From assembly GCA_013203045.1 (NCBI GenBank), contig JABMQN010000003.1, positions 18,073-82,072 on the forward strand: a stretch of 64,000 nucleotides of DNA, written 5' to 3'. The notes beneath the pieces were generated by a model. The model did not search any database. It was given only the letters and a program-made list of their open reading frames with translations, and was not told the origin of the DNA. Both the position numbers and the translations under genes were made by a program. Shown here piece by piece: positions 12,772 to 60,997 of this stretch. This DNA comes from Chloroflexota bacterium. Lineage in GTDB: Bacteria > Chloroflexota > Dehalococcoidia > SZUA-161 > SpSt-899. Every line of letters starts with the position of its first letter. Position 1 is the stretch's first letter.

Positions 12772-13412
12772 TGCACATTCCTGATGGCTACCTCCCAACT
12801 GCTGTCTGTGCTGCCGGTTATGCAATAGCAGTCCCGGTCACAGCGTTTGCTCTTTACAAAATAAGAAAGGAGGGAGACCCTCGAGAAAAAATACCCAAGG
12901 CTTCCCTCCTGACGGCCGCCTTTTTCGTTGCCTCATGGATTCACATTCCCGTACCTCCAACGAGTGTGCATCTCATATTGAGTGGCTTGATGGGATCAAT
13001 ATTAGGGTATTTTGCCTTTCCCGCTATTCTGATAGGGCTCTTTCTGCAAGCAGTAATGTTCGGTCATGGGGGCCTTTCCACACTTGGAGTAAACGCGATT
13101 GTGATCGGATTGCCCGCACTTGTGGCCTATCATATCTTTCGTTTACGAACCTTGTTTGGAGAAGCGAATCGGACTGGAACCGGGATCTTCGGATTTCTGG
13201 CGAGCCTGTGTGCAATCGGAATTTCTACAGGTTTGTTCGTTGTTCTACTAATTAATTTCATCCCCGCTGATATGGATGCTGACGATGAAAGAAATGCTAT
13301 ACTAGCGTTGGCACTCGGGCATGTACCGCTGATGTTTATTGAAGGGGCATTCACTGCATTCGTGACTATGTTCTTACTCAGGGTCAGGCCGCAGATGTTA
13401 ATTGGAATATGA
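12771..13412 (+). CDS. cbiM: ECF transporter substrate-specific component CbiM/NikM
   Basis: Begins MHIPDGYL, the hallmark CbiM/NikM N-terminus. Multi-TM. True ATG at 12771; track ORF starts upstream at an alternative codon. Confidence 0.9.
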   Translation: MHIPDGYLPTAVCAAGYAIAVPVTAFALYKIRKEGDPREKIPKASLLTAAFFVASWIHIPVPPTSVHLILSGLMGSILGYFAFPAILIGLFLQAVMFGHGGLSTLGVNAIVIGLPALVAYHIFRLRTLFGEANRTGTGIFGFLASLCAIGISTGLFVVLLINFIPADMDADDERNAILALALGHVPLMFIEGAFTAFVTMFLLRVRPQMLIGI

Positions 13413-23669: not shown

Positions 23670-23714
23670 TTCGCACAAAACAGTAAGGTAACCATTTGAA
23701 TGGGAGGTCTTGGG

Positions 23715-25934
23715 ATGGGTTCTTATGAAATCAAAAAAACCGCCTGCCAGTTCTGCGCTGCACTCTGCGGAGTTCTGGTTCATGTTGAAGACGGCAAGGT
23801 TGTCAAGATCGAAGGAAACAAGGATCACTTTTTGAGCCACGGTTTTACCTGCGAGCGGCCCGGCATCGCTCCCAAATGGCTGTATCATCCGGATCAGATC
23901 ATGTATCCCCTCAAGCGCATGGGCAAACGCGGTGAAGGCAAATGGCAACAGATTAGTTGGGATGATGCCATGACTGAGATCGGGCCAAAACTTCTCGAAC
24001 TCAAAGATAAATATGGGCCGGAAATGCTGGGATTCTTTGAGGGAACCTATCGAGGTAACGACTACTGGCCACGGGGCCGCTTTGCTACCCTTTTTGGCAA
24101 TCCGCACAACATTTTCGCTCCCGGAATAATCTGCGGCATAAATGATATGGGTATCAACATGGCGGTCACTGGGGACGTAACTACCTGGTCCACTGACCTA
24201 TCTAACTCAGGCTGCGCTGTCTTCTGGGGTAGCAATCCAGCCCAATCGGAGATGAGAAGCTGGACCCACCTTCTCCGAATGAAGAAGGAGAGGGATATCA
24301 AGATAATAGCGATAGATCCCCGGCGGACTAAAACCACCGATATCGCCGATATCTGGCTCCAGTTGCGGCCTGGCACCGATACTGCACTGGCCATGGCCTG
24401 GCTCAACGTCATTATCAATGAAGAACTCTATAATAAAGATTTCGTCCAGAATTGGACCGTAGGGTTCGATAAGCTCAAAGAACGGGTTCAAGAATATCCG
24501 CCAGAGAAAGTAGCTGAAATAACCGGTGTTCCCGCAGAGAAGATTGTCGAAGCTGCACGGACGTATGCCACCCACGGTCCATCAGCCATGCCATATGGTG
24601 TAGCCATCGATCAGTTAGGTTTGAATGGCACCCGTACAGAACACGCAAAAGTAATTATGCGCGCCATTTGCGGCTACCTGGGGGAATTTGGGGGACATCT
24701 CATAACCCGGCCGGGATCGACCAATAACGGCGGAAAATTCATTACTGAAGCTGAGCTTTCCATGATGGAGCGTCTCCCCATGGAAGCGCGTGAAAAAATG
24801 ATGGGTTTCGATGTTTGTCGGTTGGTTTCACTCAAGGGCTGGAGTATGATGGCCCCGCATATCGAACGGGTATACGGTGTTCCTGCACCGGTGACGGTAC
24901 AGATACAGGCTCATACCACCATGCTCTGGCGTTCCATCCTCTCTGGTGAACCCTACCCGATCAAGTCACTCATCTGCTGGGGCTCAAATCCGATGGCCTG
25001 GGGTGGAAACACCAAGTTGGTATACGAGGCGCTCAAGAGCGACAACCTTGATCTTTCTGTAGTTCAAGAACTGGTCATGACACCCACGGCTCAACTGGCA
25101 GATTATGTTTTCCCAGCTACCAGCTGGATGGAACGGGACCTGTGCACCAACATGATGGATTTTGCCAGTTTGCTATGGGCTGGTGAGAAGGCCATCGAGC
25201 CTCTGGGAGAGCGCCGGGACATCTATGAGTTCTTCCGCGCGTTAGCTTTGAGTGTGGGACAGGATGAATACTGGCCATGGAAAACCACAGAAGAAGTGAG
25301 CGATTATCGATTGCAGTTGTGCGGACTGACCTTCCGGGATTGTGTGGATCGAATGATAGTCTTTCCGGATACATTCGATGTAAAACCATATGAAAAGACT
25401 GGATTCCCCACACCTTCAGGTAAGGTTGAGCTTTATTCCACCATCCTCGAAAAACTGGACTATGATCCCATGCCTTTCTACGAGGAACCCCCTGAGAGTC
25501 CACTCAGGCTCCCCGAAGTGGCTAAAGAGTATCCGCTTATTTTAAATACTGGCGGCAATTATCGACCCATGTATCACTCCGAGTTCATGCAGTGGGGAAT
25601 CGGTTCCCGTGAGAAGCATCCTGACCCTCTGATGGATATTCATCCCGATACAGCTCGGGATCTGGGAATAAATGATGGCGATTGGGCCTACATCGAAACT
25701 CGCCGTGGCAAGATTAAACAGAAGGCCAGATATAACGATGGAATCTTGCCCAATGTAGTAAATTGCCAGGCGAGCTGGTGGTTCCCTGAAAAGCCGGCCA
25801 ACGAACCGGAACTCAGTGGTGTATGGGAGTCCAATGCTAATGTGCTCACCCTCGACGATCCCGAGTTCTGCGACGAACTGTCTGGTGGTTGGTGCAACCG
25901 TGCTCTCCTTTGCAAGGTTTACAAGGCAAACTAG
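23715..25934 (+). CDS. molybdopterin/tungstopterin oxidoreductase, MopB superfamily, cytoplasmic (acetylene-hydratase/formate-dehydrogenase-like), copy 1
   Basis: N-terminal 4Fe-4S motif CQFCAALCGV...C, ...YPLKRMGKRGEGKWQQISWDDAMTEI..., and C-terminal molydop-binding beta-barrel (WAYIETRRGKI). No twin-arginine signal. ATG 23715 with GGGAGG RBS. Confidence 0.85.
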   Translation: MGSYEIKKTACQFCAALCGVLVHVEDGKVVKIEGNKDHFLSHGFTCERPGIAPKWLYHPDQIMYPLKRMGKRGEGKWQQISWDDAMTEIGPKLLELKDKYGPEMLGFFEGTYRGNDYWPRGRFATLFGNPHNIFAPGIICGINDMGINMAVTGDVTTWSTDLSNSGCAVFWGSNPAQSEMRSWTHLLRMKKERDIKIIAIDPRRTKTTDIADIWLQLRPGTDTALAMAWLNVIINEELYNKDFVQNWTVGFDKLKERVQEYPPEKVAEITGVPAEKIVEAARTYATHGPSAMPYGVAIDQLGLNGTRTEHAKVIMRAICGYLGEFGGHLITRPGSTNNGGKFITEAELSMMERLPMEAREKMMGFDVCRLVSLKGWSMMAPHIERVYGVPAPVTVQIQAHTTMLWRSILSGEPYPIKSLICWGSNPMAWGGNTKLVYEALKSDNLDLSVVQELVMTPTAQLADYVFPATSWMERDLCTNMMDFASLLWAGEKAIEPLGERRDIYEFFRALALSVGQDEYWPWKTTEEVSDYRLQLCGLTFRDCVDRMIVFPDTFDVKPYEKTGFPTPSGKVELYSTILEKLDYDPMPFYEEPPESPLRLPEVAKEYPLILNTGGNYRPMYHSEFMQWGIGSREKHPDPLMDIHPDTARDLGINDGDWAYIETRRGKIKQKARYNDGILPNVVNCQASWWFPEKPANEPELSGVWESNANVLTLDDPEFCDELSGGWCNRALLCKVYKAN

Positions 25935-29147: not shown

Positions 29148-29225
29148 CGCGAGGCTTCAGCCTCGCACCCAAGCGATCCTGAAGAAGTAGGATGGGTGCA
29201 GCGAAGCATAACCCATCACAACTGA
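29141..29225. repeat. REP-like composite repeat (GAAACGTAGCGCGAGGCTTCAGCCTCGC ... GCGATCCTGAAG ...) overlapping the stop codon of the VOC gene
   Basis: Same motif as 7481-7570 and 16706-16735. Confidence 0.65.
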
Positions 29226-29305
29226 ACAATGATGATAACAGAGTGGATGGTGGGTTACATTGCATTTCACCCACCCTACCACTTGGAACGAAGGAGTCCA
29301 GGAAG

Positions 29306-31504
29306 ATGAGTAAAAGCAGCACGGAAAACGTTATTACCACTACTTGTGCCGCACACTGTGGCGGTGGTTGTCCTCTGAAAGCCCACGTTAAAGATGGTGT
29401 CATCACCAGGATCGAAGCGGACGATGATAGCGATAATACCCAGGTTCGGGCATGCTTGCGCGGGCGTTCTTGGAGGCAAAGGATATATCACCCCGATCGA
29501 CTCAAGCAACCAATGAAGCGTGTGGGGCCTCGAGGGAGCGGCCAGTTCGAACCGATCTCGTGGGATGAGGCTTTAGATACCATCGCCAGCGAGATCAAAC
29601 GGATCATCGATACTCACGGACCTGCTTCCATTGTTCACTGGGTGTCCGGTGGAGATCAGGGAATGCTGCATGACACCTGGCGGCGCATGAGTCGGCTTTT
29701 CTGCATGATGGAAGGAGGAGGTTACACTCGACCCTGGGGTTTGCATTCCTACGAGGGCGGTATATTCGCCGAACTTACCTGCTTTGGAATGGGCTGGACG
29801 GCTCATACCCGTGATGATTTTCTCAATTCCAAACTGATCATTATGTGGGGATGGGATCCGGCGACCACCATTCAGGATAGCAATACCGCATGGTATCTGG
29901 CTCAGGCCAAAGAAGCCGGAGTCAAGATCATATCGGTTGACCCAAGATTCACCGTCTCAACTGCTACATTCGCCAACCACTGGATACCCATCCGGCCAGG
30001 CTCGGATACGGCAATGCTGGTTGCTATGGCAAATGTGATGGTAACCGAAAACCTCCAGGACCAGGCATTCTTAGATAAGTTCACTGTTGGATTTGATGCG
30101 TTTAAAGATTACATTTTGGGCAATGAAGATGGTGTAGCTAAAACCCCGGAATGGGCATCCGAAATCACCAGAATCCCGGCGGATACCATCCGAAAACTAG
30201 CTCGGGAATATGCCACCACTAAACCGGCTGCACTCATTACCGGAATCGGGCCTGGACGAACGGCTTATGGTGAGCAATACCATCGAGCAGCTATCACACT
30301 GGCAGCGATGACCGGAAATATCGGCAAACCCGGCGGATCGTGTGGTGGCAAGTCATGGGGACCGCATGCTCTGGGAAGAATGGGATCGGGTCCCAAGATA
30401 CCGCCGAACCCAGTAGACCAGACCATTCCCAATCCGGAAGGCAAGCTTCCCAATCGTAATTATTATATTTATGGTTATGGTATCATCAATGTCTTTAGGC
30501 TCACCGATGCCATTATCAAGGGGAAATCCGGCGGCTACTCGGCCGACTACAAACTGCTATGGATAACCAATGCTAACCCTCTTAACCAATGGCCTAACAC
30601 CAACAAAACCATTGAGGCCTTTAACAAACTGGATTTGGTGGTTACTGAAGAGCAGTTCATGACACCAACGGCTCAGTACGCCGATATTGTGCTCCCATCG
30701 ACTACTTTCTTCGAAAGGGCCGATATTACCATGGGAGCCGCAGTGCCAGTCTTCTATGCCTATCGGAACAAAATCATTGAACCTATAGACGAAGCCAGAA
30801 CGCCGATGGATGTGGCCACTGAACTGGCTGAAAGGCTCAACTTAGAAGGTTTTAATGATAAAACTGACGAAGAATGGCTCGATGCGATACTCGAAAAAAG
30901 CACCGTCCCCGATCATGAAGCGATTAAAAAAGACGGTATCTATAAGATTGATCTTCCTGAACCCAATGTACCCTTCCGTGCACAGATTGAGGATCCGGAA
31001 AACAATCCCTTTTATACCCCTTCCGGAAAGATAGAAATCTACTCTCAGACCATCGCTGATATGAATGTGCCTGATTGCCCTCCGATTCCCAAATATATCG
31101 AACCGTGGGAGAGCCCGAACGATCCACTGGCAAAGAAATACCCTTTGCAGCTCATTACCACCCACACTCGAAGACGGGCACATACCCAATTTGATAATGT
31201 CCCCTGGTTACGAGAATTAGACCCGCATTCAATAAAGATAAATGTAATTGATGCTGAAGCCAGGGGGATCAAGGATGGTGATTTGGTTAGGGTTTTTAAT
31301 GATCGTGGTACAATGATTATTCCGGTAAAACTTATTGAAACGATCATTCCAGGGGTGGTCGATCTTCCTCAGGGTGCCTGGTTCGATCCTGATGAGAATG
31401 GAATTGATCGCGGTGGTTGTGCCAATGTACTTTCTATTGATAGACCTTCCCCCGGCGGGGCTTTACCTTCCAATACCGGTCTGGTTCAGATCGAAAAAGC
31501 CTGA
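29306..31504 (+). CDS. molybdopterin/tungstopterin oxidoreductase, MopB superfamily, cytoplasmic, copy 2
   Basis: N-terminal TTTCAAHCGGGCP...DGVITRIEADDD 4Fe-4S motif, ...YHPDRLKQPMKRVGPRGSGQFEPISWDEALDTIA..., and C-terminal molydop-binding domain. ATG 29306 with AAGGAG RBS. No Tat signal. Confidence 0.85.
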   Translation: MSKSSTENVITTTCAAHCGGGCPLKAHVKDGVITRIEADDDSDNTQVRACLRGRSWRQRIYHPDRLKQPMKRVGPRGSGQFEPISWDEALDTIASEIKRIIDTHGPASIVHWVSGGDQGMLHDTWRRMSRLFCMMEGGGYTRPWGLHSYEGGIFAELTCFGMGWTAHTRDDFLNSKLIIMWGWDPATTIQDSNTAWYLAQAKEAGVKIISVDPRFTVSTATFANHWIPIRPGSDTAMLVAMANVMVTENLQDQAFLDKFTVGFDAFKDYILGNEDGVAKTPEWASEITRIPADTIRKLAREYATTKPAALITGIGPGRTAYGEQYHRAAITLAAMTGNIGKPGGSCGGKSWGPHALGRMGSGPKIPPNPVDQTIPNPEGKLPNRNYYIYGYGIINVFRLTDAIIKGKSGGYSADYKLLWITNANPLNQWPNTNKTIEAFNKLDLVVTEEQFMTPTAQYADIVLPSTTFFERADITMGAAVPVFYAYRNKIIEPIDEARTPMDVATELAERLNLEGFNDKTDEEWLDAILEKSTVPDHEAIKKDGIYKIDLPEPNVPFRAQIEDPENNPFYTPSGKIEIYSQTIADMNVPDCPPIPKYIEPWESPNDPLAKKYPLQLITTHTRRRAHTQFDNVPWLRELDPHSIKINVIDAEARGIKDGDLVRVFNDRGTMIIPVKLIETIIPGVVDLPQGAWFDPDENGIDRGGCANVLSIDRPSPGGALPSNTGLVQIEKA

Positions 31505-40775: not shown

Positions 40776-42983
40776 CTAATCTTTATAAACCTTGCAGAGG
40801 AGCCCTCTGAAATAGCTGTTCCCGGCATAGTCGGAGAATCCAGGTTCGTCTGGGACGATAGCATCGATGTTCGATTCCCACACTCCGAATAAACTCGGTT
40901 CGGCTTCCTCTTTCTCAGGGAACCACCAGTAGCCGTCAGCGTGGACAACCTGTGGGGGCATTCCTTCCAATAGCTTCACCTTCTGTCTCACTTTCCCCAT
41001 TGGCGTTTCGACCCATGCCCAGTCTCCCTCGCTGATACCCAGTTCCTCAGCCTTTTCGGGACTGATCTCCATCACTGGGTCGGGATAACGTTTCCTTATC
41101 TTTTCAAGCTGTCTATGAGAGGAATGATGGAATTCCTTTACCCTCGAACCGCTAATCAGGATCAACGGGTATTCTTTCGCTAAGTCCGGTGTAGATATGG
41201 GGCTCCACGGCGGTTCCTCATAGCCTGCCAGTGGATCGTAGCCCAGTTGCTGTAATACAGTTGGCACCAACTCAACTTTGCCTGAAAAAGTAGCGAATCC
41301 GGTTTTTTCATACTTTTTGTATTCTTTAACCGGGAAGTAACCGGGAGTCTGAGCAAGTTCGCGGAGTGTGACACCGGCGGGTGCCAGCAGTTTATTCAGC
41401 CAACCTTCAAGTGTATCCGGCCAATTTTTTTCTTGTCCCAGCCGCTTACCCAGATCAGCCCATAACTGGTAATCGTCTTTTCGTTCGTACATGGGCTCGA
41501 CGATAGCCTCGCGTCCGAATTCAGAGCCTGTCATTCCCCACAGGTTAGTGATCGTGGGATGCTCCATGGCATCGGTGGCCGGCAGTACATAATCAGCGAG
41601 AGCCCCGGTTGGTGTGAGGAAATGATCCATGGATACATGCAACTCGAGATTATCACTCTTGAAAGCTTCGTATGCATGCCTGGAATCACCGATGGAGCAA
41701 AGCGTATTCGTACCCTGATCGAACACCGCCTTAATTGGGTAGGGCTTCTCAGTCAGGATTGCTTCCCAGCACGCATGAGGGGATGGATAGATGAAGTATT
41801 GCGCCGCTCCCCATCCTTTGGGATAGACACGCTTCATCGCTTCGTGGTAAAGGACTAAAGCCTTGACTGACCCTATCGATTGTTGATCGGCACTGACGGT
41901 ATCCCGGGTTCGCAGCGGGTGATTGATTTGACTGTCCCAATTCATCTCCTCCAGAAAAGCGGTATAATCCGGCGGAGTGCTGAAGACCTGGCCCCCTTCT
42001 CGATCCAGATTACCGGTTACGGCTCGAAGCCAGCATTTTCCCATCACCCCACTTAATCCAGCGCGATTGCCCAGGTGCGTATTGGCAACACCCCAGGTCA
42101 GGGCAGCCGCAGAAGCGTTGGCATACATTCGGGCAGCCTCGATGATTTTATCGGCGGGTACCCAGGTGATTTCCGAGACTTTCTCTGGAGTATACTGCTG
42201 AACGAGAGTCTTGAGTTCGTCAAATCCCAGGCACCACTTCTCGACGAACTCCTTATCATAAATACCTTCATTAATGATCACGTTCAACATGCCTAAAGCC
42301 AAAGCCCCATCCGTGCCCGGGCGAAGTTGCAGCCAGAGGTCGGCCGCTTTAGCGCAGGTGGTCGGCCTGGGGTCCACCACGATGATCTTCATCCCTTGAC
42401 TCTGCGAGTACTTGTATCCCTCCCACAGCCTCGGCTGAGATTCTGATGGGTTTGCTCCCCAGATAATCAGGACACCGGTTTTTTCAGGATTTAAAAATGT
42501 GGCCCAAGCTGCAATCGTGTCATAGCCATACATAGCGCATTCGACCGGGAATTCCGCTTCACCACAGTTCTTGCCGAGATGAAAGAAATTAGGCGTTCCC
42601 CAGAGATTGCACCATTTCCAGGCCGCCGGATCACCCGGCCCATGAGGGGAACCTCCGAGGACCAGTACAGCTTCCGGCCCATATCGATCGCGGATGCTCT
42701 CCAGTTTCGCTGCGATCTCATCCATCGCCTGTTCCCAGGAAATCCGTTCCCACTTTGCCTCTCCGCGTGCGCCTACCCTTTTCAGCGGGTAATTCATCCT
42801 TTTTGGATGGTCGTGGTATTCCACGCCGTTTACACCGCGGATGCAAAGGTGGCCCAGAACACTTTCACTGTCCGGTTGCACCTTAACCACTCTGTCATTG
42901 TCAATATGGGCAACGATATGACAGAAGGTGCCACACACCGGGCAAGTGCCTTTTCGAGTAGTTGTATTAGATTCTGTTACCAT
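40776..42983 (-). CDS. molybdopterin/tungstopterin oxidoreductase, MopB superfamily, cytoplasmic, copy 3
   Basis: CPVCGTFCHI...C 4Fe-4S motif, ...YPLKRVGARGEAKWERISWEQAMDEIAAKL..., and C-terminal barrel (WAWVETPMGKV). No Tat signal. Confidence 0.85.
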   Translation of the reverse strand: MVTESNTTTRKGTCPVCGTFCHIVAHIDNDRVVKVQPDSESVLGHLCIRGVNGVEYHDHPKRMNYPLKRVGARGEAKWERISWEQAMDEIAAKLESIRDRYGPEAVLVLGGSPHGPGDPAAWKWCNLWGTPNFFHLGKNCGEAEFPVECAMYGYDTIAAWATFLNPEKTGVLIIWGANPSESQPRLWEGYKYSQSQGMKIIVVDPRPTTCAKAADLWLQLRPGTDGALALGMLNVIINEGIYDKEFVEKWCLGFDELKTLVQQYTPEKVSEITWVPADKIIEAARMYANASAAALTWGVANTHLGNRAGLSGVMGKCWLRAVTGNLDREGGQVFSTPPDYTAFLEEMNWDSQINHPLRTRDTVSADQQSIGSVKALVLYHEAMKRVYPKGWGAAQYFIYPSPHACWEAILTEKPYPIKAVFDQGTNTLCSIGDSRHAYEAFKSDNLELHVSMDHFLTPTGALADYVLPATDAMEHPTITNLWGMTGSEFGREAIVEPMYERKDDYQLWADLGKRLGQEKNWPDTLEGWLNKLLAPAGVTLRELAQTPGYFPVKEYKKYEKTGFATFSGKVELVPTVLQQLGYDPLAGYEEPPWSPISTPDLAKEYPLILISGSRVKEFHHSSHRQLEKIRKRYPDPVMEISPEKAEELGISEGDWAWVETPMGKVRQKVKLLEGMPPQVVHADGYWWFPEKEEAEPSLFGVWESNIDAIVPDEPGFSDYAGNSYFRGLLCKVYKD

Positions 42984-51866: not shown

Positions 51867-53771
51867 ATGAGCGAGTTTGGATATGCTGGTCAAATCCTAA
51901 AAGTTGATCTCTCCGAAGGGAAGATCACCACGCTCCCAACGGCTGATTATTCCGATAGATTCCTCGGCGGCCGAGGCGTAGCTGCCAAGATATATTGGGA
52001 CGAAGTTCCTCCTCAAACCAAGTCTCTTTCCCCGGGGAATTACCTCATTTTTGTTAATGGACCTCTGGCCGGATTCACTCGTTTAGCGGGGTCTCGATGG
52101 CAAATATGCGGAAAATCCCCTGCGACGCAGCCGGAGCAGTTTTCCTATGCGAATGCGGGTGGCAGTTGGGGTGCGTGGCTGAAGTTCGCAGGCTTCGATG
52201 GTATTGCCGTCACTGGCAAATCGGATACACTCGTGTATTTGTGTGTGAGAGATGGCCAATGCGAAATTCGGGATGCTACTCATTTGGCGGGCAAGAGCAC
52301 CATCGAAACACGGCAAATACTGAAGCAATATCTGGGGAAGGATACGAGGGTAGTGGCAACTGGCCCTGCGGGTGAAAACCAGGTCTCCTTCGCAACACTG
52401 CTGGCGGACGAAGACTCCAGTGCTTCTGCTGGCTTTGGTGCGGTGATGGGTTCGAAGAATCTTAAAGCTATCGCAGTGATTGGCGATAAAAAGCCCATTG
52501 CTGCCGATCCCGAGAGACTCAAAGAACTGGCCGATCAGATAGCCCAATTGCGTAAAGGTACCCACGAAATGTACACCCCGGCAATACCGGGCCGAACCAA
52601 GCGTACAGCTTGCTATGGATGTCCCACTGGCTGCACTCGTCAGATTTATACGGCTGACGATGGAGATCGGGGTAAATTTTTCTGTGAGTCTCTTGCCTTT
52701 TATCTCAAGCAGGCTCAGGAGTATTATGGAGACTGGCCTGAACCTTCATTTTACGCTAACAGGCTTTGCGATAAATACGGCCTCGATACCGCTGTGATGG
52801 AACCGATGATCATCTGGCTTTCCCGATGTTTTAAAGAAGGCGTTTTATCGGAGTCGGAGACAGGTCTACCGCTATCCAAGATTGGGAGCAATGAGTTCAT
52901 CGAAGCACTCGTTCGCAAAATTTCTCTACGAGAAGGTTTTGGCGACGTGCTTGCTGATGGGATCATACGGGCCGCACAATCGGTGGGCGAAGAGGCAGAA
53001 CACCTGATCGGTGATTGTATTGCTACGAAAGGCAATGAGGTAAGAACGTATGATCCCCGGTTGTACAATATCACCGCGCTTCTTTACGCTACAGAACCGA
53101 GGCGGCCGATTCAGCAACTCCACGAGGTGAGCATTACGATATCTGAGTGGATTCAATGGCAGAAAGGCGGCAAAGATTCGTTCCTTTCATCCGAGTCCTT
53201 TCGCGATATATCAAAGGAATTCTGGGGAAGTGAAGCTGCGTTTAACTTCATGACCTTGGATGGAGCGGCGCTCGCAGCCAAGATGATTCAAGATCGGACA
53301 TATGCTAAAGAAAGCCTGATTCTTTGCGACTTTCTCTGGCCGATCATGTGGGTCCGGTATTCAGAAAACCATGCCGGAGACCCAACCCTTGAGGCTAAGG
53401 TTCTATCAGCGGTTACTGGCACCCAGGTGGATAGAGAGGAGCTTGATCGCATAGGCGAAAGAATTTTCAATTTGCAGAGGGCTATCCTGGTCCGAGAGGG
53501 GCGCAGGGGAAGGGAAGGAGATACTCTTTTGGATTTCTTTCATACCGATCCACTGGAGTTTGAGGTCTTGAATCGCAGACTTCTGGTTCCCGGGAAAGAT
53601 GGTGAGCCTATATCCCGCAAAGACGCGATACTGGAGAAATCCGACTTCGAACGTTTGAAGGATGAGTATTACGAACTTAGAGGTTGGGATGTTGCCACTG
53701 GACTTCAAAAACGAGAGAAGCTGGTTGAACTTGGGCTTGAGGACGTAGCTCCCGAATTGGATACTAATTGA
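51867..53771 (+). CDS. tungsten-containing aldehyde:ferredoxin oxidoreductase (AOR family)
   Basis: GYAGQILKVDLSEGKI...LGGRG N-terminal domain and CYGCPTGC 4Fe-4S motif. Confidence 0.88.
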   Translation: MSEFGYAGQILKVDLSEGKITTLPTADYSDRFLGGRGVAAKIYWDEVPPQTKSLSPGNYLIFVNGPLAGFTRLAGSRWQICGKSPATQPEQFSYANAGGSWGAWLKFAGFDGIAVTGKSDTLVYLCVRDGQCEIRDATHLAGKSTIETRQILKQYLGKDTRVVATGPAGENQVSFATLLADEDSSASAGFGAVMGSKNLKAIAVIGDKKPIAADPERLKELADQIAQLRKGTHEMYTPAIPGRTKRTACYGCPTGCTRQIYTADDGDRGKFFCESLAFYLKQAQEYYGDWPEPSFYANRLCDKYGLDTAVMEPMIIWLSRCFKEGVLSESETGLPLSKIGSNEFIEALVRKISLREGFGDVLADGIIRAAQSVGEEAEHLIGDCIATKGNEVRTYDPRLYNITALLYATEPRRPIQQLHEVSITISEWIQWQKGGKDSFLSSESFRDISKEFWGSEAAFNFMTLDGAALAAKMIQDRTYAKESLILCDFLWPIMWVRYSENHAGDPTLEAKVLSAVTGTQVDREELDRIGERIFNLQRAILVREGRRGREGDTLLDFFHTDPLEFEVLNRRLLVPGKDGEPISRKDAILEKSDFERLKDEYYELRGWDVATGLQKREKLVELGLEDVAPELDTN

Positions 53772-53796
53772 CAATATAGAACCTTCATGCTAGAAT
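53768..53796 (+). promoter_or_regulatory. sigma70 promoter TTGACA-17-TAGAAT (TGCTAGAAT extended -10), overlapping the AOR stop
   Basis: Hexamers read directly. Third occurrence of the TGCTAGAAT -10 in the window. Confidence 0.55.
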
Positions 53797-53847
53797 TTTG
53801 CACCCAAATCCTCCATTAGAAATTAGATTACTGATTAACTGGCACTG

Positions 53848-53948
53848 AAAAAGGGTAAACCTGCCGAAAGGCGGCGGCGCAGAGCTACGGGTCTAAAGTC
53901 GCATGAGCCAGGACAACCGAGTTACCGAGTGCGACTTCGACTTTGTTA
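53848..53948 (+). ncRNA. structured 5' leader with GEMM/c-di-GMP-I-riboswitch-like motifs (GGGUAAACC...CGAAAG...GGUCUAAA...GUUACCGA)
   Basis: By-eye resemblance to the c-di-GMP-I consensus (GCAAACC, GNRA loop, CUAAA, GUUACCGA). Not computationally verified. Confidence 0.35.
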
Positions 53949-53984
53949 CGCCTTTGGGCCGCATTGCCCAAAGGCGTTTGTGTC
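53949..53984 (+). terminator. intrinsic terminator/attenuator hairpin CGCCTTTGGG-CCGCATTG-CCCAAAGGCG + TTTGTGTC
   Basis: Perfect 10-bp GC-rich stem followed by a U-rich tract, located inside the leader upstream of the PAS gene. Confidence 0.6.
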
Positions 53985-54015
53985 AGATAAAAATCCCAAT
54001 AATGAGGGTATTCGT

Positions 54016-55734
54016 ATGAGAGATGAAAAGAAAACCAAAGCAAAACTCATCGAAGAACTGCAACAGATGCGCTATAGAGTGGCCGAATTGGAGGCCCCAG
54101 AAACAGGACGCAAGCAGACGGAGGAACAATTGAGAATCCTCTCATCGGTAGTTGATCAAAGTGTAAACTCAATTGCCGTACTCGACAATGAAGGCAATGT
54201 TGAATACGTGAATTCGAAACTGCTTGAGCCATATGAAATTAATCCCGAGGAAATCATTGGTACAAACTGGCGGTCCTTTCTATCTGAACATTCCTCTCTG
54301 AGAAGCCGGTATGACGAAATGCGAAGCACTGTTCTGGAAGAGGGGGAAGTATGGAGAGGAGAAGTCTCAGATAGAACAGTGAACGGGGAAACAATATGGA
54401 GAGAAGCGACTGTTTTCCCAATTGTAGATGCGAGCGGAACGGTTACCCATTCCGTGTATATGAGCCAGGACATTACTGATCGCAAACAGGCAGAGCAAGA
54501 GCGAGTACGGTTAACTGCAATTCTAGAGAACACCAGCGACATGGTTTCTACGGCGCTGCCAGACCAACGAATAACCTATATGAACCGAGCGGGAAAAGAA
54601 ATGCTTGGCTGGCCAAATGAAAACATCTCTATAGATAAAGATATTCACATGGCTCATCCGCAGTGGGCTGCTGAAATGATTGAGAAAGAAGGTGTTTCCA
54701 CAGCGATCCGCGATGGTATCTGGAGAGGTGAGACTGCGTTGTTGGGTACCAATGGCACCGAGATTCCGGTTTCACAGGTGATCATGTCTCATAAGTCTTC
54801 AACCGGCGAATTGGAATACCTGTCCACCATCATTCGAGATATCAGTGAGCGCAAGCAGGCAGAGGAAGTAATGAGACAAAGCGAAGAAACCCTCAAAGTA
54901 TCTCAGGAGATCGGCCATATCGGCAGTTGGAGCCTCGACCTGGAAAAAAACGATCTGTTGTGGTCTGACGAGGTCTACCGGATATTCGGATTGATGCCTC
55001 AGCAGTTTGACACCACGTATGAGGTGTTTTTAGAAGCAGTTCATCCGGATGATAGGGAGATGGTCAACTCGGCTTATACCACTGCTATTAAAACTCATGC
55101 TCCCTATGAAGTGGTCCACAGGGTCCTGAGACCGAACGGGGAAGTGAGAATTGTCCGAGAAAAATCGGTAGACATTGCAGACGAATCTGGAAGGATAGTT
55201 CGATCTGTCGGAATGATACATGATATTACCGAGCAGAAGCTGGCCGAGGAGGCCCTGAGGGACAGTGAAGAGAAACTCCGCAGTATTCTTGAATCATCTC
55301 CCGATGCCATTACCGTCACTAATCTGGAGGCAAAGCTGACCGATTGCAATCCCGCAACTCTGTCCATGCACGGTTTTGATACTATGGAAGAACTGATCGG
55401 CATGGATACCCTTGAGTTAATAAAGCCGGAAGATCATCAAAGGGCGGTGGAAAATATCCAAAGAACTTTGGATCAGGGTACCGCGAAGAATATAGAATAC
55501 ACTTTTTTAAGAAAAGACGGAACTGAATTCTTAGGAGAAATTTCCGCAAGCGTGATTCGGGATGTGTTTGGCAATCCGGTTTCCTTCGTGGCCATAACAA
55601 AAGACATCGCTGAGCGCAGGCAAGCGGAGGAAGTACTGCGGGAATCGGAGGGAAAATTCAGAAGCATAGTCAATTCCTCCCCGATGGGGATGCATATGTA
55701 CCAACTGGAATCCGACGGACCGCTTCAAAGGTGA
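54016..55734 (+). CDS. multi-PAS/PAC sensor protein lacking any recognisable output domain
   Basis: Coiled-coil N-terminus followed by about four PAS/PAC repeats. Ends ...MHMYQLESDGPLQR with no HisKA/HATPase/GGDEF/EAL. ATG 54016 (the track extension runs through the terminator hairpin). Confidence 0.7.
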   Translation: MRDEKKTKAKLIEELQQMRYRVAELEAPETGRKQTEEQLRILSSVVDQSVNSIAVLDNEGNVEYVNSKLLEPYEINPEEIIGTNWRSFLSEHSSLRSRYDEMRSTVLEEGEVWRGEVSDRTVNGETIWREATVFPIVDASGTVTHSVYMSQDITDRKQAEQERVRLTAILENTSDMVSTALPDQRITYMNRAGKEMLGWPNENISIDKDIHMAHPQWAAEMIEKEGVSTAIRDGIWRGETALLGTNGTEIPVSQVIMSHKSSTGELEYLSTIIRDISERKQAEEVMRQSEETLKVSQEIGHIGSWSLDLEKNDLLWSDEVYRIFGLMPQQFDTTYEVFLEAVHPDDREMVNSAYTTAIKTHAPYEVVHRVLRPNGEVRIVREKSVDIADESGRIVRSVGMIHDITEQKLAEEALRDSEEKLRSILESSPDAITVTNLEAKLTDCNPATLSMHGFDTMEELIGMDTLELIKPEDHQRAVENIQRTLDQGTAKNIEYTFLRKDGTEFLGEISASVIRDVFGNPVSFVAITKDIAERRQAEEVLRESEGKFRSIVNSSPMGMHMYQLESDGPLQR

Positions 55735-55981
55735 ACGTGACCCCACAATCAGCACATTGCAGTTCTCTATCAGTGAAACTCATTGAATGACCTCCTTTTT
55801 AAGAATTGTGAACTGAACTTTGGTCATTGATTTGTATGGTAATAACTTGGGGAGATGATACTACACCGCATATATAGCAAGGCATTTCGATCACAATCCA
55901 AAAGTCTTGGTTTAGGGGTAAAGACCTGCTCAAGTATGAGGTGTTACCAATTATAACGTTTAAGCAGTATTAGTACTAGCT

Positions 55982-56116
55982 CTACCCGATCCTAAACACC
56001 TTCGTCTTACACTTACCACACGTACCCTTAGTGGCTGGCCTGCCGTTCTTCATCTTGACCTTCTTGGGACTCTGGATCTCAACCTTCTTGCGGCATTTCA
56101 TGCAATACGCAGTCAT
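55982..56116 (-). CDS. 44-aa zinc-ribbon protein (MTAYCMKCRKKVEIQSPKKVKMKNGRPATKGTCGKCKTKVFRIG), DUF5679-like
   Basis: Not in ORF track. ATG 56116 with GGGAGG RBS, TAG at 55982. CxxC...CxxC ribbon. Confidence 0.6.
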   Translation of the reverse strand: MTAYCMKCRKKVEIQSPKKVKMKNGRPATKGTCGKCKTKVFRIG

Positions 56117-56574
56117 AAGAATACCTCCCTTTAAATAAAGGCTGCTTATCTACAAGACGAGTGGCAACGTGCGGAAGTTCCTTGATGGGCCTATGACAGA
56201 TAGCGGAAAGGTGATTCTCAGATCGTTAAACGCACGAGAATAACTGTAGGGGCGAGTTTAGGTTTCTAGGGTAGGCCCTCACTAGGTTGGGCATTGTTCA
56301 CCTTCAGCAAAACTCAAGATACAGAGAGAATCACCCACTACACTGAGCCTCTTGCAAAATTCTGTGGAACAGGCTTGAGACTTGCAATTGATTAAGAAAG
56401 ACAGGCCCAATATGTTTTTACAACCACGCAAGCCTGGAAATTGTCTGCCTTACCCCAATAATTGAGGTAAATAGAGCTATTATCTTTGTTTTTGCCGTTT
56501 CTTGAGCATACTTCCCCTTTTGCAACCGCGTTTGGCGCATTTGAAAACTTCTCTTTTCGTTATCAAGTAAGAAA

Positions 56575-57726
56575 CTATGTGGCAGCAAGACGTAACAGTT
56601 GATCGGCTGTTAGCGCCAACATGCCAAACATCAAATGAGTCATTACTTTAGCATGCCCCCGAACTCGTATCATCCTCCCACCAAACTCGTCCTTCAAGCG
56701 ACCATACACTCTCTCAACACTTGTTCTCTCTTTGTATCGACGGCTCTCAGGCCGTTCAAAGTGAAGAAATTTGAAACGTCGAGCTTCTGCCTTCAAATCC
56801 TCTTTCAGTTCCGTATTCCGCCGTGGATTGATATCCACAATCGGTATATGCCCCAGTGATTTGCTGTACTCTCTGATAACCGGAGCATCATAAGCTGAAT
56901 CCATCAAGTCATATAGGTTGGTAACCCGTTGGTTCGTCACAGATGCCAGAGGTAATGACACTTGGCTGTCATGAACTGAGGCTGAAGTCAGAATACAGCT
57001 AACGGGAATCTGACCGTCTGCAACATCGATGTGAAGCTTGTATCCAATCCAAGTCTCTTTGTGGCCCTTGCTGTTCTTCTTCGTGCCAACATCACACTTA
57101 TTCGGCAGGTCATCCAGCATTTCATCTACCGTTGTCATGGTTTGCTGGCGCTCCAATCGAGTTGTCACTTTCGCCCGTTCCTCACCCTTCTTGGGACGAC
57201 CACGTTTCTGCTTCAAAGATTCCATCTCTGATTCAGCTTTTAATTTCTTCTCCGGCTTTTCCCGAACTTCAATCTCCGTCGAATCCCGAGAGATATGCCC
57301 TACGATATCCTCGGACAGATTATTGACAATCAATGCTTCGTGGACATGTGTCGATAATTGAGTTTCCGAGAACTCTTCATAAGCTCGCGAGAAGGTTGCT
57401 TCGCTTGGTATATCACTCTTCATTTCCCATCCGCAAATACGACGCAACTTATTGTCACATTCAAGACGGTCCAAGAGTGCACGTGTTGTCGGCATATTGT
57501 ATACAGCTTTGGCAACAAAAGCTCGCGCTACAGGAGCACGCTCCTCCGGCGGCCTTCCTCGTAAGCTGTTATTGAGGGCAACAAACCTCTCGATTCGAAT
57601 CATGTCCAATGTGACTATAAGTTTCTGCTCTTTCTCGGTCAATTTGCCAAATGATTCCTCAAGCCAGGGGAAAAGACTCCCTTGTATCTTCAGCCAATAT
57701 CCAGATATTCTCTCAACTAACTCCAC
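56575..57726 (-). mobile_element. IS4/IS5-type DDE transposase gene (insertion sequence; ends not defined)
   Basis: 383-aa protein with N-terminal HTH region and DDE region (...HIDVADGQIPVS...DSAYDAPVIREY...). Terminal inverted repeats could not be identified by eye. Confidence 0.65.
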
Positions 57727-57937
57727 AGATGATCTCCTTCTCGTTTATCTACACTCTCATTTTACCCTAATCAATGGAGATCAAACCATTATTGTACAGT
57801 CGAATAATTATGCCTCTTTACCGACTTTTGCAAGAGGCTCCACTGTTAATCATTTTTCGTACTCCAATCCGCCCCAAGGTAACAAACTGTATACTTTGTT
57901 ACCCACTCGTTGAAATCGGCCAAATTCTAAATGTGTC

Positions 57938-58027
57938 TTGACAATTCACTTTATTATATGTAGAGTAATTCCACATTATATATGTTAATATGTTGACAAA
58001 TACAACTATAATAAGTATCATATGTAG
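57938..58027 (+). promoter_or_regulatory. two sigma70-like promoters (TTGACA-17-TAGAGT and TTGACA-17-TATCAT), each overlapped by a TATATGTAG box; a third inverted box CTACATATA sits at 58298-58306 after the gene
   Basis: Hexamers and 9-mer repeats read directly in an AT-rich leader of the C2H2 gene. Confidence 0.45.
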
Positions 58028-58064
58028 ATGCAATCTATAAAAAGATATTAAGGATGTAGCATAA

Positions 58065-58283
58065 ATGAGTTACGCACAATATCGACCACCACGCCGACTA
58101 TGGATCTGTCCTGTCCCAGGCTGTGAATCGAATTTCGAGGAACGTTGGCGACTAAAGCGGCACCTCAAACTTACTCATAGACTAGGTGAAAGAGACGCTA
58201 CCATCACAGCCGAGAGGTCGGAATACTGGCTACGGTTGGGATATGTGAATCCCCGCACCTTTTTTGGTGATGAAATGGATTAA
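58065..58283 (+). CDS. small C2H2 zinc-finger protein (CPVPGC-x13-H-x4-H)
   Basis: WICPVPGCESNFEERWRLKRHLKLTH is a classical C2H2 finger spacing. 72 aa. Confidence 0.6.
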   Translation: MSYAQYRPPRRLWICPVPGCESNFEERWRLKRHLKLTHRLGERDATITAERSEYWLRLGYVNPRTFFGDEMD

Positions 58284-58359
58284 ATTATTACGATGCTCTA
58301 CATATAGGCTATGCACTGTCTTTGAAAATATGTAATTAGTACTTTGGGAGATCAATGTA

Positions 58360-58875
58360 ATGGACAACATAGATCGCTTGGAAAAATTATTGGACGGTAC
58401 AAATTTCATGGCTTTCCCGGATTTAAATTCTCTGGATCCTATGAAAGATTTTGAGGATCACAACACTGGGGAGTGGGAAAAACTCGGTAATGACAAGGCT
58501 GAAAGGATTAGGGGCTTAATATGGGCGATTGCGGCGGACAAGCTACAGCCGATGGCTTTTGAGAAATGGGGCAACACCAGTGACTCGGCGGTAAAAGATG
58601 TGCTTCAGGAGACGCTAAATGAAAAACTGGGGGAACTCGAACGTAATACGGACTGGCAGCATGTAATCAAGAATGTAAAAAACTACCTTATGAACGAGGA
58701 GCAGTGGACTCCAGAACAAGTCGAACAATTGATTCATTTCTGCCTAATTGATTACTGGGTGGATTTCTGCGCTGATGGCGTTAAAAGTTGGGAGCTATTA
58801 CCACGAGCCAACGTTTGGGAGATAGTCGATTTACTGGCCAGCTTGTATAGGGAGGTCAGCCTTGGCAATAATTGA
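58360..58875 (+). CDS. hypothetical protein (acidic, helical)
   Basis: 171-aa ORF with good coding look. Overlaps the start of the serine recombinase by 14 nt (co-transcribed). Confidence 0.55.
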   Translation: MDNIDRLEKLLDGTNFMAFPDLNSLDPMKDFEDHNTGEWEKLGNDKAERIRGLIWAIAADKLQPMAFEKWGNTSDSAVKDVLQETLNEKLGELERNTDWQHVIKNVKNYLMNEEQWTPEQVEQLIHFCLIDYWVDFCADGVKSWELLPRANVWEIVDLLASLYREVSLGNN

Positions 58876-60997
58876 TGATATATTAATCTCTTTAAACACT
58901 AGGGGATCAAAACCAAGCGAATCAGATCTGCGGAAACTCCCTTTCAGAAAAGCAGACATCTATGGAAGGCAGTCGGATCCCAGCCAAGTACGTGATCACA
59001 AACAATCCCTTCTCGAAATTGCAGACTTGGTGGAACTAGCTAAAAATGATGGGTACAAGAGTGAACTAACCAAAGAACAAGTTGAAGCATGGCTACTATC
59101 AATTCAACGAGGGGAGACGGAGAAAGGCGTATTGGTTAATGGTGATATTATGGTTGATGTTCGGGATTTGGGGATTTCCGGGCAGTTGTCCGCTGAATAC
59201 CGTGAGGGATTGACTGCCCTTATCAACGGAATTGAGAATAACGAGATTGGTTCTGTTTATGTAGCTGAACCCAGTCGACTTACTCGTGATAGAGAAGGTC
59301 TTCAGCCGCCCATTTTTCTCCGCTTGTTTAAAACTCACTTCTGCAGAGTTAGAACGCCAGAAGGTACTTGGAACGCAGCTATACCTGCGGACTGGGAATA
59401 TCTCCACGAAGAATTTCAATTGGCGAGAAAGGAGAATATACACTTCGGGCGACGTTTATACCGAAAAAGAAAAAAGAAAGCAGGAAACGGCGATTATGTA
59501 GGGGAACCTGTCACATTGGGTTACAAATTGAAAATCCTACGTATTAGCTCGAATGGGAGGTACGAATTTGGGAGAATGGAACCGTACGCCCCTCATGCTG
59601 AGATTGTGAACGAAATACTTAGGGAGTATTTAAACCAAGACGGAAGCTGGCAAAGAACTGCCCAAGCACTAAAGGGCACCATAATCCCATTCTTTGAACC
59701 TGAACTCAATTATATGTGTAATTACTCAGTGTTGAGGCAGTGCACTGAGTTGGCAGATGGTTATAAAATAACACCTACACTGATCAAAGGAGTTGTGAAG
59801 AATCCCAAGATTATAGGTATTCATTATTGGGGAGACACAGTTCCAATTGCACATAATCATGAACCTATCGTGTCTGAGGAGTTATTTACAAGAGCCTATA
59901 CGGTGGCAACTAGAAAAGGCAAACCCAAGGGAAAAACTGTAAGATTTGAGCCTCTTGTGCTCTCTGGTCTCCTCATGTGCTGCGAACATCAAGAACCAAT
60001 AGTGATGTCAAGCAATCGCAAGGAAGGGCGCTATAGATGTGATCGTGGATATCGATCTGGCCAAGACCATCATTGTATGCTCATCACTGATCACCTTGTT
60101 GATGAGCCTGTTACATCGGCGATACTCGGGCAGTTGGATTTAACACCATTCGCTCAGGAGGTACTAGACAAATTTGAGACAGACGTTGCACAGGTCAACG
60201 TTGAAAAAATGAACTATCGAAAGAAAGTATCCGAATTGAAACAGAGGTTGGAAAATCTCAAACCGTATTTGGGATGCGGAGATCCAAAGCGAGAGGATAT
60301 ATACTGGGATTTGTACCAGGAAACTCTGGATACTATAAATGACCTTCAGGCCAAACCGCCTTCAGATATCACAAAAAGTAAAGGGACAGACATTACCAAA
60401 TTACGAATGTTCCTTTCAGAATTACCTAAGAACTGGCAATTATTCAACCATAGCCAACAGAATCGGTTTATAGGACTCTTCATTGATAGGATTGATGTAT
60501 GGCACAAGGATCGTCGAATCGATTTACAGATCATTTGGAAAAACGGTTTTGTACAATCATTGACAATAGATCTCCCAAAGGCTAATAACAAACTTGGCAA
60601 TGCATGGACGTCTCAAGAAAAAAACCTTCTTAGATTACTATGGCGGGATTACTCGAGAGAGGATATCCAAGGTGCATTACCCAATCGAAGTTGGGGAGCC
60701 ATTCAGAGCCAAGCGCATGTCATGAAGCTAAAGCGTCAGGTCGGCCATAGTAATCGGACTTACCATGGCCCATGGACAGATGCAGAGGAAGCAAATGCCA
60801 GGAAACTTTGGGAATTAGGAATTCGAAAAGAAGAAATTGCCCATGCAATCGGCAGAGGTGAGAACAGTGTCGCACAGAAAGCACGGCGCTCTGGATGGAA
60901 ACGCCCAGAGCATTTCAGGAAAAAGACCAGCAAGGTGTTATGCGTAGGTGAAAAGTTAGAAGTTCTGCAAGGATTGCCTTCCCAAGGTCGATGGTGA
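58862..60997 (+). CDS. large serine recombinase (resolvase catalytic domain + recombinase domain + zinc ribbon/coiled coil) with two C-terminal Myb/SANT-like repeats
   Basis: Catalytic IYGRQS and RLTRD motifs. Cys cluster CCEHQ...C. C-terminal repeats WTSQEKNLLRLLWRDY...W and WTDAEEANARKLWELG...W. TTG start with GGGAGG RBS. Confidence 0.8.
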   Translation: MAIIDDILISLNTRGSKPSESDLRKLPFRKADIYGRQSDPSQVRDHKQSLLEIADLVELAKNDGYKSELTKEQVEAWLLSIQRGETEKGVLVNGDIMVDVRDLGISGQLSAEYREGLTALINGIENNEIGSVYVAEPSRLTRDREGLQPPIFLRLFKTHFCRVRTPEGTWNAAIPADWEYLHEEFQLARKENIHFGRRLYRKRKKKAGNGDYVGEPVTLGYKLKILRISSNGRYEFGRMEPYAPHAEIVNEILREYLNQDGSWQRTAQALKGTIIPFFEPELNYMCNYSVLRQCTELADGYKITPTLIKGVVKNPKIIGIHYWGDTVPIAHNHEPIVSEELFTRAYTVATRKGKPKGKTVRFEPLVLSGLLMCCEHQEPIVMSSNRKEGRYRCDRGYRSGQDHHCMLITDHLVDEPVTSAILGQLDLTPFAQEVLDKFETDVAQVNVEKMNYRKKVSELKQRLENLKPYLGCGDPKREDIYWDLYQETLDTINDLQAKPPSDITKSKGTDITKLRMFLSELPKNWQLFNHSQQNRFIGLFIDRIDVWHKDRRIDLQIIWKNGFVQSLTIDLPKANNKLGNAWTSQEKNLLRLLWRDYSREDIQGALPNRSWGAIQSQAHVMKLKRQVGHSNRTYHGPWTDAEEANARKLWELGIRKEEIAHAIGRGENSVAQKARRSGWKRPEHFRKKTSKVLCVGEKLEVLQGLPSQGRW

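Follow-up and report, generated by a model that had tools for sequence, protein, structure and literature searches.

A c-di-GMP-I (GEMM-I) leader precedes a shortened PAS-domain gene in a Chloroflexota MAG; homology files it under RF01051 as a genuine member of the GEMM-I family whose competence to bind c-di-GMP is questionable. The stretch of DNA that was analysed, hereafter called the window, is 64,000 nucleotides (64 kb) long. We hold, with middling confidence, that the leader is a GEMM-I descendant with the build of an OFF switch which has most likely been weakened or has begun to decay, because two near-invariant ligand-binding features are missing from it, its target gene is broken and the copies in sister lineages are broken as well. 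The promoter, aptamer, hairpin, ribosome-binding site and ATG are all encoded on the + strand within 250 nt, and the elements of the leader and the genes on both sides of it are as follows:

53743 to 53771, + strand: derived 3' end of the AOR gene (NQT71232.1); homology to the sister strain stops at 53743
53768 to 53796, + strand: sigma-70-type promoter, TTGACA-17-TAGAAT with an upstream TG (11/12 match)
53842 to 53846, + strand: 5' strand (GCACU) of the putative closing stem P1, predicted to pair with AGUGC at 53928-53932
53844 to 53929, + strand: c-di-GMP-I (GEMM-I) aptamer, located by the RF01051 covariance model
53855 to 53880, + strand: first hairpin of the aptamer, with a GAAA loop at 53866-69
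53883 to 53923, + strand: second hairpin of the aptamer, 53883-93 pairing with 53912-23
53948 to 53984, + strand: intrinsic-terminator-like hairpin with a perfect 12-bp stem and a UUGUGU tail
54004 to 54018, + strand: Shine-Dalgarno sequence GAGGG (54004-54008) and start codon ATG (54016-54018)
54016 to 55734, + strand: shortened multi-PAS gene (572 aa, NQT71233.1), characterised with Pfam; the gene call is identical in public assemblies

Family membership was established by an Rfam scan of the whole 64 kb. RF01051 (c-di-GMP-I / GEMM-I) matched positions 53844-53929 of the + strand with 57.7 bits (E = 1.1e-08), well above its curated gathering score of 35 bits. The match was untruncated (model positions 1-87), and it was the sole Rfam match in the window at curated thresholds. 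A permissive scan of 53780-54020 again placed RF01051 at the top as the best model of clan CL00126; it outscored the variant models of the clan, and two weaker matches from the same clan were discarded. An earlier note on this DNA had seen a resemblance to GEMM in the leader and had named the lack of an Rfam match above threshold as its refutation; the score puts the resemblance far beyond chance. The strings quoted there as resembling conserved elements, GGGUAAACCUGCCGAAAGGCGG (53853-53874), GGUCUAAA (53890-53897) and GUUACCGA (53921-53928), are all present in the leader, and the aptamer is surrounded by an A-rich 5' flank and an ACCGA 3' flank.

The helices of the aptamer are intact. It consists of two adjacent hairpins, the first built from 2-bp and 6-bp stems around a 3-nt internal loop, as described for GEMM (Weinberg 2007, PMC1950547). 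The pairs of this hairpin are 53855/80 and 53856/79, followed by 53861-65 with 53870-74. When the RF01051 model was mapped to the aptamer, 19/21 pairs were canonical; at 53860/53875 C faces C, and one pair in the distal part of the second hairpin is C-A. Comparison with the canonical copy of a sister strain gave 95.1% of cells paired and 5 compensatory pairs in which both sides have changed. The second hairpin also contains a sequence resembling a receptor for the GAAA loop, UCUAAAG...CAGGA, which differs from the canonical 11-nt motif and has weak distal pairs. With the putative stem P1 the calculated energy of the aptamer was -19.2 kcal/mol versus -13.7 kcal/mol without it, and the canonical sister copy has UUU/AAA at the equivalent place.

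The leader shares with the Vc2 riboswitch of Vibrio cholerae the two-hairpin aptamer, the 2+6-bp first hairpin with its 3-nt internal loop, the GAAA loop and the location in a 5' UTR. It differs from Vc2 in an AGA linker, an A at G83, A43G and C22U, and in its host, a Chloroflexota MAG. For this comparison we used our own conversion of Vc2 numbering to model positions, checked against the spacing of G20 and A47 and against other residues (PMC4744006, PMC11705072). Three nucleotides that contact the ligand in Vc2, G20, A47 and C92 (PMC4744006, PMC5888326), are kept as G53854, A53881 and C53925 (model positions 11, 38 and 83).

Conservation of these three equivalents speaks for a fully functional c-di-GMP OFF riboswitch, in which the substitutions would be tolerated or would tune the affinity and the PAS-only protein would be a sensor or adaptor repressed at high c-di-GMP. 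Intact helices and a score well above threshold fit such a still-functional switch: every stem is preserved, with compensatory differences from the paralogue, the promoter, ribosome-binding site and hairpin are intact, and the shortened ORF is stable across three assemblies. We regard full function as a serious but doubtful possibility, and sensing of c-di-GMP by this aptamer as questionable and uncertain, given four alterations at near-invariant positions, all of them transitions:

53856, + strand: U in place of Vc2 C22, which gives a U-G pair
53877, + strand: G in place of Vc2 A43
53882, + strand: G in place of Vc2 A48 (model position 39)
53916, + strand: A in place of Vc2 G83 (model position 74)

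Two of these changes affect near-invariant features of the binding core. The linker between the hairpins (53881-53883) reads AGA and not AAA, and A48 is listed with the key recognition nucleotides (PMC3764141), which argues against full function. The GEMM linker is "virtually always AAA", with 2 exceptions among 322 (PMC1950547), and the occurrence of these two among accepted GEMM RNAs is a point in favour of function. Secondly, C53878 lies opposite A53916 (model positions 35 and 74), so that the interhelical Watson-Crick pair C44-G83, which is described as universally conserved (PMC4744006), is unable to form. Binding by the Vc2 mutant G83C was undetectable by ITC and NMR (PMC11705072), which again weighs against a functional switch, although the window aptamer carries G83A and not the G83C that was assayed. 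Taken together, the altered positions suggest that the ligand affinity is probably reduced.

The core changes of the window are derived, since relatives retain the consensus bases at the altered positions; a sister relic, for example, retains the G at the position of G83 (consensus AGC). They are also confined to the population of the window, a further point against full function. A pattern scan of the metagenome for G39 together with A74 in a GEMM-like frame yielded no other GEMM with both A48G and G83A. The four loci that it returned were rejected as chance: a first hairpin and an Rfam match are absent from all of them, and three represent one and the same coding sequence. A covariance model of the window aptamer and the canonical sister copy was searched against 883 kb of DNA, mostly from Chloroflexota, and nothing similar came up; its lone extra match there was weak and GEMM-like, with a normal AAA linker (L013).

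The c-AMP-GMP sensors of Kellenberger 2015 and Nelson 2015 are reportedly marked by an A at position 20. The Geobacter c-AMP-GMP riboswitches and the window aptamer have the fold in common, and the latter has a G at position 20 (G53854) with its changes elsewhere; this G makes the c-AMP-GMP subtype unlikely. The GEMM-Ib riboswitches for c-AMP-GMP arose from GEMM-I via nucleotide changes in the binding site (PMC5888326, PMC7266159), and rare GEMM-I variants sense c-AMP-GMP (PMC7266159). With these variants as a precedent, and with a structure that is conserved while nucleotides of the binding core are altered, the changes at A48, G83 and A43 might be read as a shift of ligand preference to another cyclic or linear dinucleotide. 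We judge this to be very unlikely: besides the G at position 20, RF01051 beats the variant models of the clan, the case is a single representative to which neither the metagenome scan nor the 883 kb of related DNA added another, and there are signs of decay at the locus. It also appears improbable to us that the aptamer is a naturally occurring, working GEMM-I variant that is retuned to much higher c-di-GMP concentrations or to another dinucleotide, with the PAS-only protein as a deliberately shortened regulator. The weakened or decaying GEMM-I descendant that we favour would be an ordinary kind of element, which may be losing its function.

The hairpin that follows the aptamer has the stem ACGCCUUUGGGC/GCCCAAAGGCGU, pairing 53948-53959 with 53966-53977 (8 G-C pairs, 6-nt loop, -22.7 kcal/mol). 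Behind the last paired U the tail reads UUGUGU, without a run of four unpaired U. A rho-independent terminator is defined as a stable G+C-rich hairpin directly followed by at least four U. A strict consensus scan left the leader hairpin uncalled because its U-run is weak, a point against the switch that we propose. Perfect stems of at least 9 bp occur at 7 loci in the 64 kb, the leader hairpin among them, and the U-tracts of other gene-end hairpins (11435, 20923 and 28031) are equally weak. The perfect 10-bp GC hairpin with U-tract that had been proposed for this site is borne out as far as the stem is concerned, which even comprises 12 bp, whereas the U-tract is weaker than implied.

Among GEMM RNAs, a terminator overlapping the last aptamer stem is the commonest arrangement (78/322) and is predicted to act as an ON switch (PMC1950547). 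The window has in common with this arrangement that an aptamer and a rho-independent terminator hairpin follow each other in the same leader; it differs in that the hairpin starts ~16-25 nt past the aptamer, without overlap, and in the opposite (OFF) logic that we propose. Within the lineage, the leader resembles the canonical riboswitch of a sister strain, which lies in the same neighbourhood and has the same layout: its aptamer is followed by a separate 13-bp hairpin, whose U-tract is weak, and by a ribosome-binding site. This suggests that the detached-hairpin design is in use in this lineage. The sister riboswitch differs in having all consensus nucleotides (GGCAAACC, GACGCAAAGC, AGC), and it governs an 87-aa protein and a DUF4395 gene, a block that is deleted in the strain of the window.

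Because the hairpin is separate from the aptamer, a third element, an antiterminator, is needed for control. A candidate was found in the minimum free energy (MFE) folds of shortened transcripts:

53874 to 53904, + strand: 5' strand of the candidate antiterminator/anti-aptamer helix, from the MFE of shortened transcripts
53929 to 53962, + strand: 3' strand of the candidate antiterminator, from the same folds

In the aptamer, the 5' strand takes up the 3' side of the first hairpin, the junction, and the 5' side of the second hairpin with its distal loop. The 3' strand comprises the 3' strand of P1 (53929-53932), a linker with a CGACUU/CGACUUU repeat, the 5' arm of the terminator and the first bases of its loop. 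Transcripts ending at 53960-53965, which are without the 3' arm of the terminator, folded into a long nested helix of 53874-53904 with 53929-53962 at -42.8 to -44.2 kcal/mol, compared to -19.2 kcal/mol for the unliganded aptamer with P1; the antiterminator duplex itself has an energy of -33.7 kcal/mol. A competing fold for the terminator stem thus does exist; its absence had been named beforehand as a refutation of the switch. Dinucleotide shuffles gave complementarity at least as good in 184/1000, 93/500 and 408/1000 cases, so that the OFF logic is a matter of geometry and not of statistics. Of the OFF-switch platform that had been claimed, the geometry of the competing fold therefore stands; a pairing strength above that of shuffled sequences does not.

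We propose that the leader would work as a transcriptional OFF switch in the following way. The aptamer (53844-53929) would fold first. Binding of c-di-GMP would lock the junction (53874-53885) and P1 (53842-46 with 53928-32), which would leave 53933-53962 free to form the hairpin 53948-53977, and transcription would terminate in UUGUGU ahead of the PAS gene. With no c-di-GMP bound, the distal loop of the second hairpin (53896-53904) would be exposed and open to strand invasion by 53929-53947, which comprises the linker and the 3' strand of P1; from there the helix would extend outward until 53874-53885 captured the 5' arm and loop of the terminator (53950-53962), resulting in read-through.

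The MFE structure of the full-length leader contains the terminator with or without the aptamer. As the terminator forms at equilibrium regardless of the aptamer, any read-through must be kinetic. The same observation can be turned into an argument for an inert aptamer, where the hairpin would be a constitutive or factor-dependent terminator or attenuator that ends read-through from AOR and limits the expression of a pseudogene. This explanation would also account for an AOR gene without a terminator of its own before the hairpin, for an antiterminator that is not significant against shuffles and for the shortened gene downstream. It even has a precedent in Bc1 of the Bacillus cereus group, where the interaction with c-di-GMP is demonstrated and two terminators mask the response (PMC11218506). 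Bc1 and the leader are alike in combining GEMM-I with a detached terminator-type platform, and the c-di-GMP response of Bc1 in vivo is absent or doubtful; the window differs by its one hairpin and altered core nucleotides. An inert aptamer is nevertheless unlikely in our estimation, considering its intact helices and the dedicated strong promoter directly before it.

This promoter matches the consensus at 11/12 positions (53768-53796), in line with the strong promoter that the earlier note had placed before the leader, and its -35 hexamer overlaps the stop codon of AOR. Transcription would start at ~53803, a few bases past the -10 hexamer. Matches of at least 11/12 occur seven times on both strands of the window, each just upstream of a gene, and hence such promoters are seemingly in use in this genome. 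The scarcity and good placement of the promoter and of the leader hairpin are points in favour of the OFF-switch build. The promoter is also conserved in two sister lineages (L090 and L099). A possible anti-Shine-Dalgarno role of CCUCC in the leader (53810-14) was dropped, since 536/1000 shuffles did at least as well.

The weakened or decaying leader that we favour is accompanied by a target gene that has lost its end. The PAS protein contains four complete PAS domains and ~25 residues of a fifth, and its terminal PLQR stems from the junction described below. In relatives such as P0026, the last 40 residues align with the start of a further PAS domain. All Pfam matches belong to PAS-type families, without an output domain, which agrees with the earlier description of a PAS-only gene; a PAS-like diguanylate-cyclase sensor domain stayed below threshold (27.4 bits vs a cutoff of 28.1). 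PAS-only proteins exist, and the NCBI annotation lists this one as intact, both of which are points against decay. The best relatives of the protein share at most 44% identity with it and are mostly multi-PAS histidine kinases with HisKA/HATPase domains and 850-1000 aa, and the search for a full-length PAS orthologue yielded none above 44% identity; the exact protein did not surface in that search because an unrelated 51-aa fragment represents its 90% cluster. None of the best 120 relatives carries GGDEF or EAL (PF00990, PF00563), and a motif scan found no GGDEF or EAL motif anywhere in the window. A lone match to the HD...GYP pattern (~9059, minus strand) was attributed to chance, as it lies inside a gene of the Pfam CoA-transferase family III. 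The suggestion that the gene was formerly a PAS-GGDEF/EAL protein is consistent with our data only in that an output part was lost, as neither the 120 relatives nor the window point to a GGDEF/EAL ancestor; judged from the relatives, the lost part more probably consisted of further PAS domains and a kinase.

The gene lost its end at a junction, at and beyond which the following features were found:

55671 to 55783, - strand: shortened treble-clef zinc-ribbon fragment (MSFTDRELQCADCGVTFTF...), recognised by translation and Pfam zf_Tbcl
56345 to 57840, - strand: IS element whose terminal inverted repeats are 21 nt long, with a DDE_Tnp_1/DUF772 transposase at 56575-57726
58862 to 60997, + strand: large serine recombinase gene (Pfam Recombinase/Resolvase)

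The zinc-ribbon ORF, which starts at 55783, runs head-on into the PAS ORF and loses its similarity inside it; residues 5-21 match positions 2-18 of the 48 in the zf_Tbcl profile (E = 0.001). By their homologies, the convergent PAS and zinc-ribbon genes are evidently both cut, with a breakpoint at ~55720. Past the junction, a DUF5679 gene, the IS element, an AT-rich stretch and the large serine recombinase follow, and the GC content drops from ~0.50 to 0.39-0.46. The serine recombinase marks this DNA as mobile or foreign. As direct cause of the truncation, the IS element was rejected, as it has its own inverted repeats (56345/57840) and lies ~625 bp from the junction. An inversion was likewise dismissed, since no displaced remainder was found in the window: tblastn with the kinase C-termini of the relatives and with the PAS protein, together with zinc-ribbon regexes, gave no kinase, PAS or zinc-ribbon remainder elsewhere in the window.

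The enolase of the window is ~100% identical to that of an NCBI "MAG: Chloroflexi bacterium", with Dehalococcoidia-like MAGs as its neighbours. The locus was recovered in several assemblies: a 60.7-kb JGI contig, a second JGI sample and the Logan assembly of SRR28106079 carry this DNA as well. The four contigs with the locus are identical over 53349-55962, including the riboswitch, where no sequence variation occurs, and the 26 differences of one of them (L089) all fall in the DUF5679 gene. The junction recurs unchanged in three assemblies and is thus no isolated chimera but a reproducible feature. That the likeness to GEMM is due to chance, or the locus to faulty assembly, has a negligible probability: the identical DNA occurs in two JGI samples, 3300032737 and 3300032731, as well as in one SRA run, homologous copies exist in sister lineages, and the Rfam match is the sole one, with E = 1.1e-08 over the window.

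Sister lineages reveal how the leader looked before. In one sister strain (ENA ERZ247946xx, L090-L096) the flanks share 93% identity with the window, and homology extends across AOR as far as window position 53743. The window is without ~1.2 kb of the sisters' DNA, comprising DUF4395, the 87-aa gene and the canonical c-di-GMP-I riboswitch (L090 12922-12834, minus strand, 80.3 bits). The AOR protein has 634 aa in the window vs 638 aa in relatives, and by this comparison the 3' end of AOR in the window is evidently a deletion product. Beyond the extra 1.2 kb, the promoter of the window and its second aptamer half recur on the + strand of the sister strain, with a scrambled first hairpin (13.7 bits, E = 8). 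This copy lacks both a terminator and a PAS gene, and the genes that follow it are SnoaL-like and of the acetone-carboxylase type.

In a third lineage (L099-L100), AOR is 75% and enolase 95% identical to the window. The same promoter is followed by the first aptamer half with the consensus GACGCAAAGCC, and inside the second hairpin the sequence switches abruptly to a stretch that matches 19/20 bases beside the IS element of the window. Among the matches listed, L099, the longest, and L100 end at the same base ~50 nt past the switch. Judging from its sequence, this leader bears the signature of an interruption by an IS-like repeat insertion. The homologous leaders are thus clearly broken in both sister lineages, which is another point against a fully functional switch in the window. 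By this comparison, the ancestral leader was a normal GEMM-I, and the locus is a rearrangement hot spot at which the same leader was damaged in three different ways.

The informative relatives were obtained by cluster and exact look-ups. Synteny of AOR in 80 loci from GTDB genomes (at most 58% identity) was too distant to help.

To our knowledge, c-di-GMP signalling is little studied in Chloroflexota, and the element provides an example from this group for a riboswitch family that has been studied very thoroughly. The recorded targets of GEMM RNAs include PAS and histidine-kinase genes (PMC1950547), and a GEMM-I ahead of a PAS gene is unsurprising to a specialist. The value of the locus is that of a natural experiment, with one promoter-driven GEMM-I leader in three lineages and differing damage: point changes of the core in the window, loss of the first hairpin in the sister strain and an inserted IS-like repeat in the third lineage, while a canonical GEMM-I copy survives next door in one of them. 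If the RNA of the window binds c-di-GMP, the AAA linker and C44-G83 would be less essential than the work on Vc2 suggests; if it does not, the locus would preserve a dated stage in the decay of a riboswitch whose target gene had been broken. For annotation, the lesson is that an Rfam score above threshold is no guarantee of a working switch.

The sister strain carries a canonical c-di-GMP-I riboswitch in addition to a degenerate copy of the window's leader; an interrupted leader was found in a third lineage and a weak GEMM-like candidate in a Dehalococcoidales MAG:

L090 (sister-strain locus) 12834-12922, minus strand: fully canonical c-di-GMP-I riboswitch, 80.3 bits
L090 13093-13267, plus strand: homologous but degenerate copy of the window's promoter plus aptamer, 13.7-15.5 bits
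L099 12938-13102 and L100 5914-6078 (third lineage): leader interrupted by a sequence that matches window segment 56293-56312
L013 (Dehalococcoidales MAG) 3585-3653, plus strand: weak GEMM-like match, 23.6 bits with a two-sequence model built from the window's aptamer and the sister strain's canonical copy

The canonical riboswitch is also present in four further sister-strain loci (L091, L092, L093 and L094). Behind it comes a detached hairpin of 13 bp with GGAGG/CCUCC within its arms, and the genes 3' of the riboswitch encode an 87-aa protein without Pfam match and a DUF4395 protein. This entire block, from riboswitch and hairpin to the 87-aa and DUF4395 genes, is absent from the window's strain. 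The neighbouring AOR gene differs at its 3' end (window 53743-53771): its final ~9 codons are unlike those of every relative, the protein comprises 634 aa in the window versus 637-640 aa in the relatives, and its stop codon shares bases with the -35 hexamer. A 1.2-kb deletion seems to have produced this C-terminus as a by-product.

In the degenerate copy, the first hairpin is lost, while the second hairpin and ACCGUGUGCGAC are retained; downstream lie genes for SnoaL_4, ferredoxin and hydantoinase/acetone-carboxylase proteins. In the third lineage, the interruption falls inside the second hairpin, and 19 of 20 bases of the interrupting sequence are matched immediately to the left of the window's IS. 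Among the matches listed, L099 and L100 share a common end base ~50 nt past the interruption. Taken together, the match beside the IS and the shared end suggest that the interruption is the end of a related IS or MITE, and that the window's IS may extend further to the left than the limits marked by its 21-nt inverted repeats. In the L013 candidate, the second hairpin is short, and the linker, GCAAAGC, is normal.

The linker between aptamer and terminator in the window contains a short direct repeat, CGACUU-CGACUUU (53936-53947). Since AAAGUCG in the second-hairpin loop (53895-53901) can pair with either copy, the alternative helix has two registers in which it could begin.

Homology search with the downstream PAS protein (window 54016-55734) missed the exact protein, because the representative of its 90%-identity cluster (P0241/P0242) is an unrelated 51-aa ENA fragment (9/18 identities), which is a database artefact. 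Further downstream, all 26 differences between the window and L089, one of the contigs carrying the riboswitch locus, lie in or beside a 44-aa DUF5679 gene (55963-56145), and none was found across the 2.6 kb upstream of this region. They probably stem either from a DUF5679 paralogue where the assembly breaks or from a tract of recombination.

The remaining features of the window are as follows:

57900-58360: AT-rich stretch (GC 0.39-0.41) between IS and recombinase module
57993: near-consensus promoter within this stretch
~58066-58284: 72-aa ORF with C2H2-like spacing in the same stretch, matching a called gene at L085 16199-16417
6045-6078, 6677-6710 and 28031-28074: long palindromic hairpins with perfect pairing, 13-20 bp
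23700-25934, 29192-31504, 40776-42983 and 51867-53771: three molybdopterin oxidoreductases and a tungsten-type aldehyde:ferredoxin oxidoreductase

The first two hairpins are alike in size and could be copies of a single repeat; the third (20 bp) follows a gene ending at 28023. All four oxidoreductase genes lie inside 30 kb and, with several short-chain dehydrogenases, a CoA-transferase, an acyl-CoA dehydrogenase and an old-yellow-enzyme-type reductase alongside, resemble a densely packed island of anaerobic oxidoreductases.
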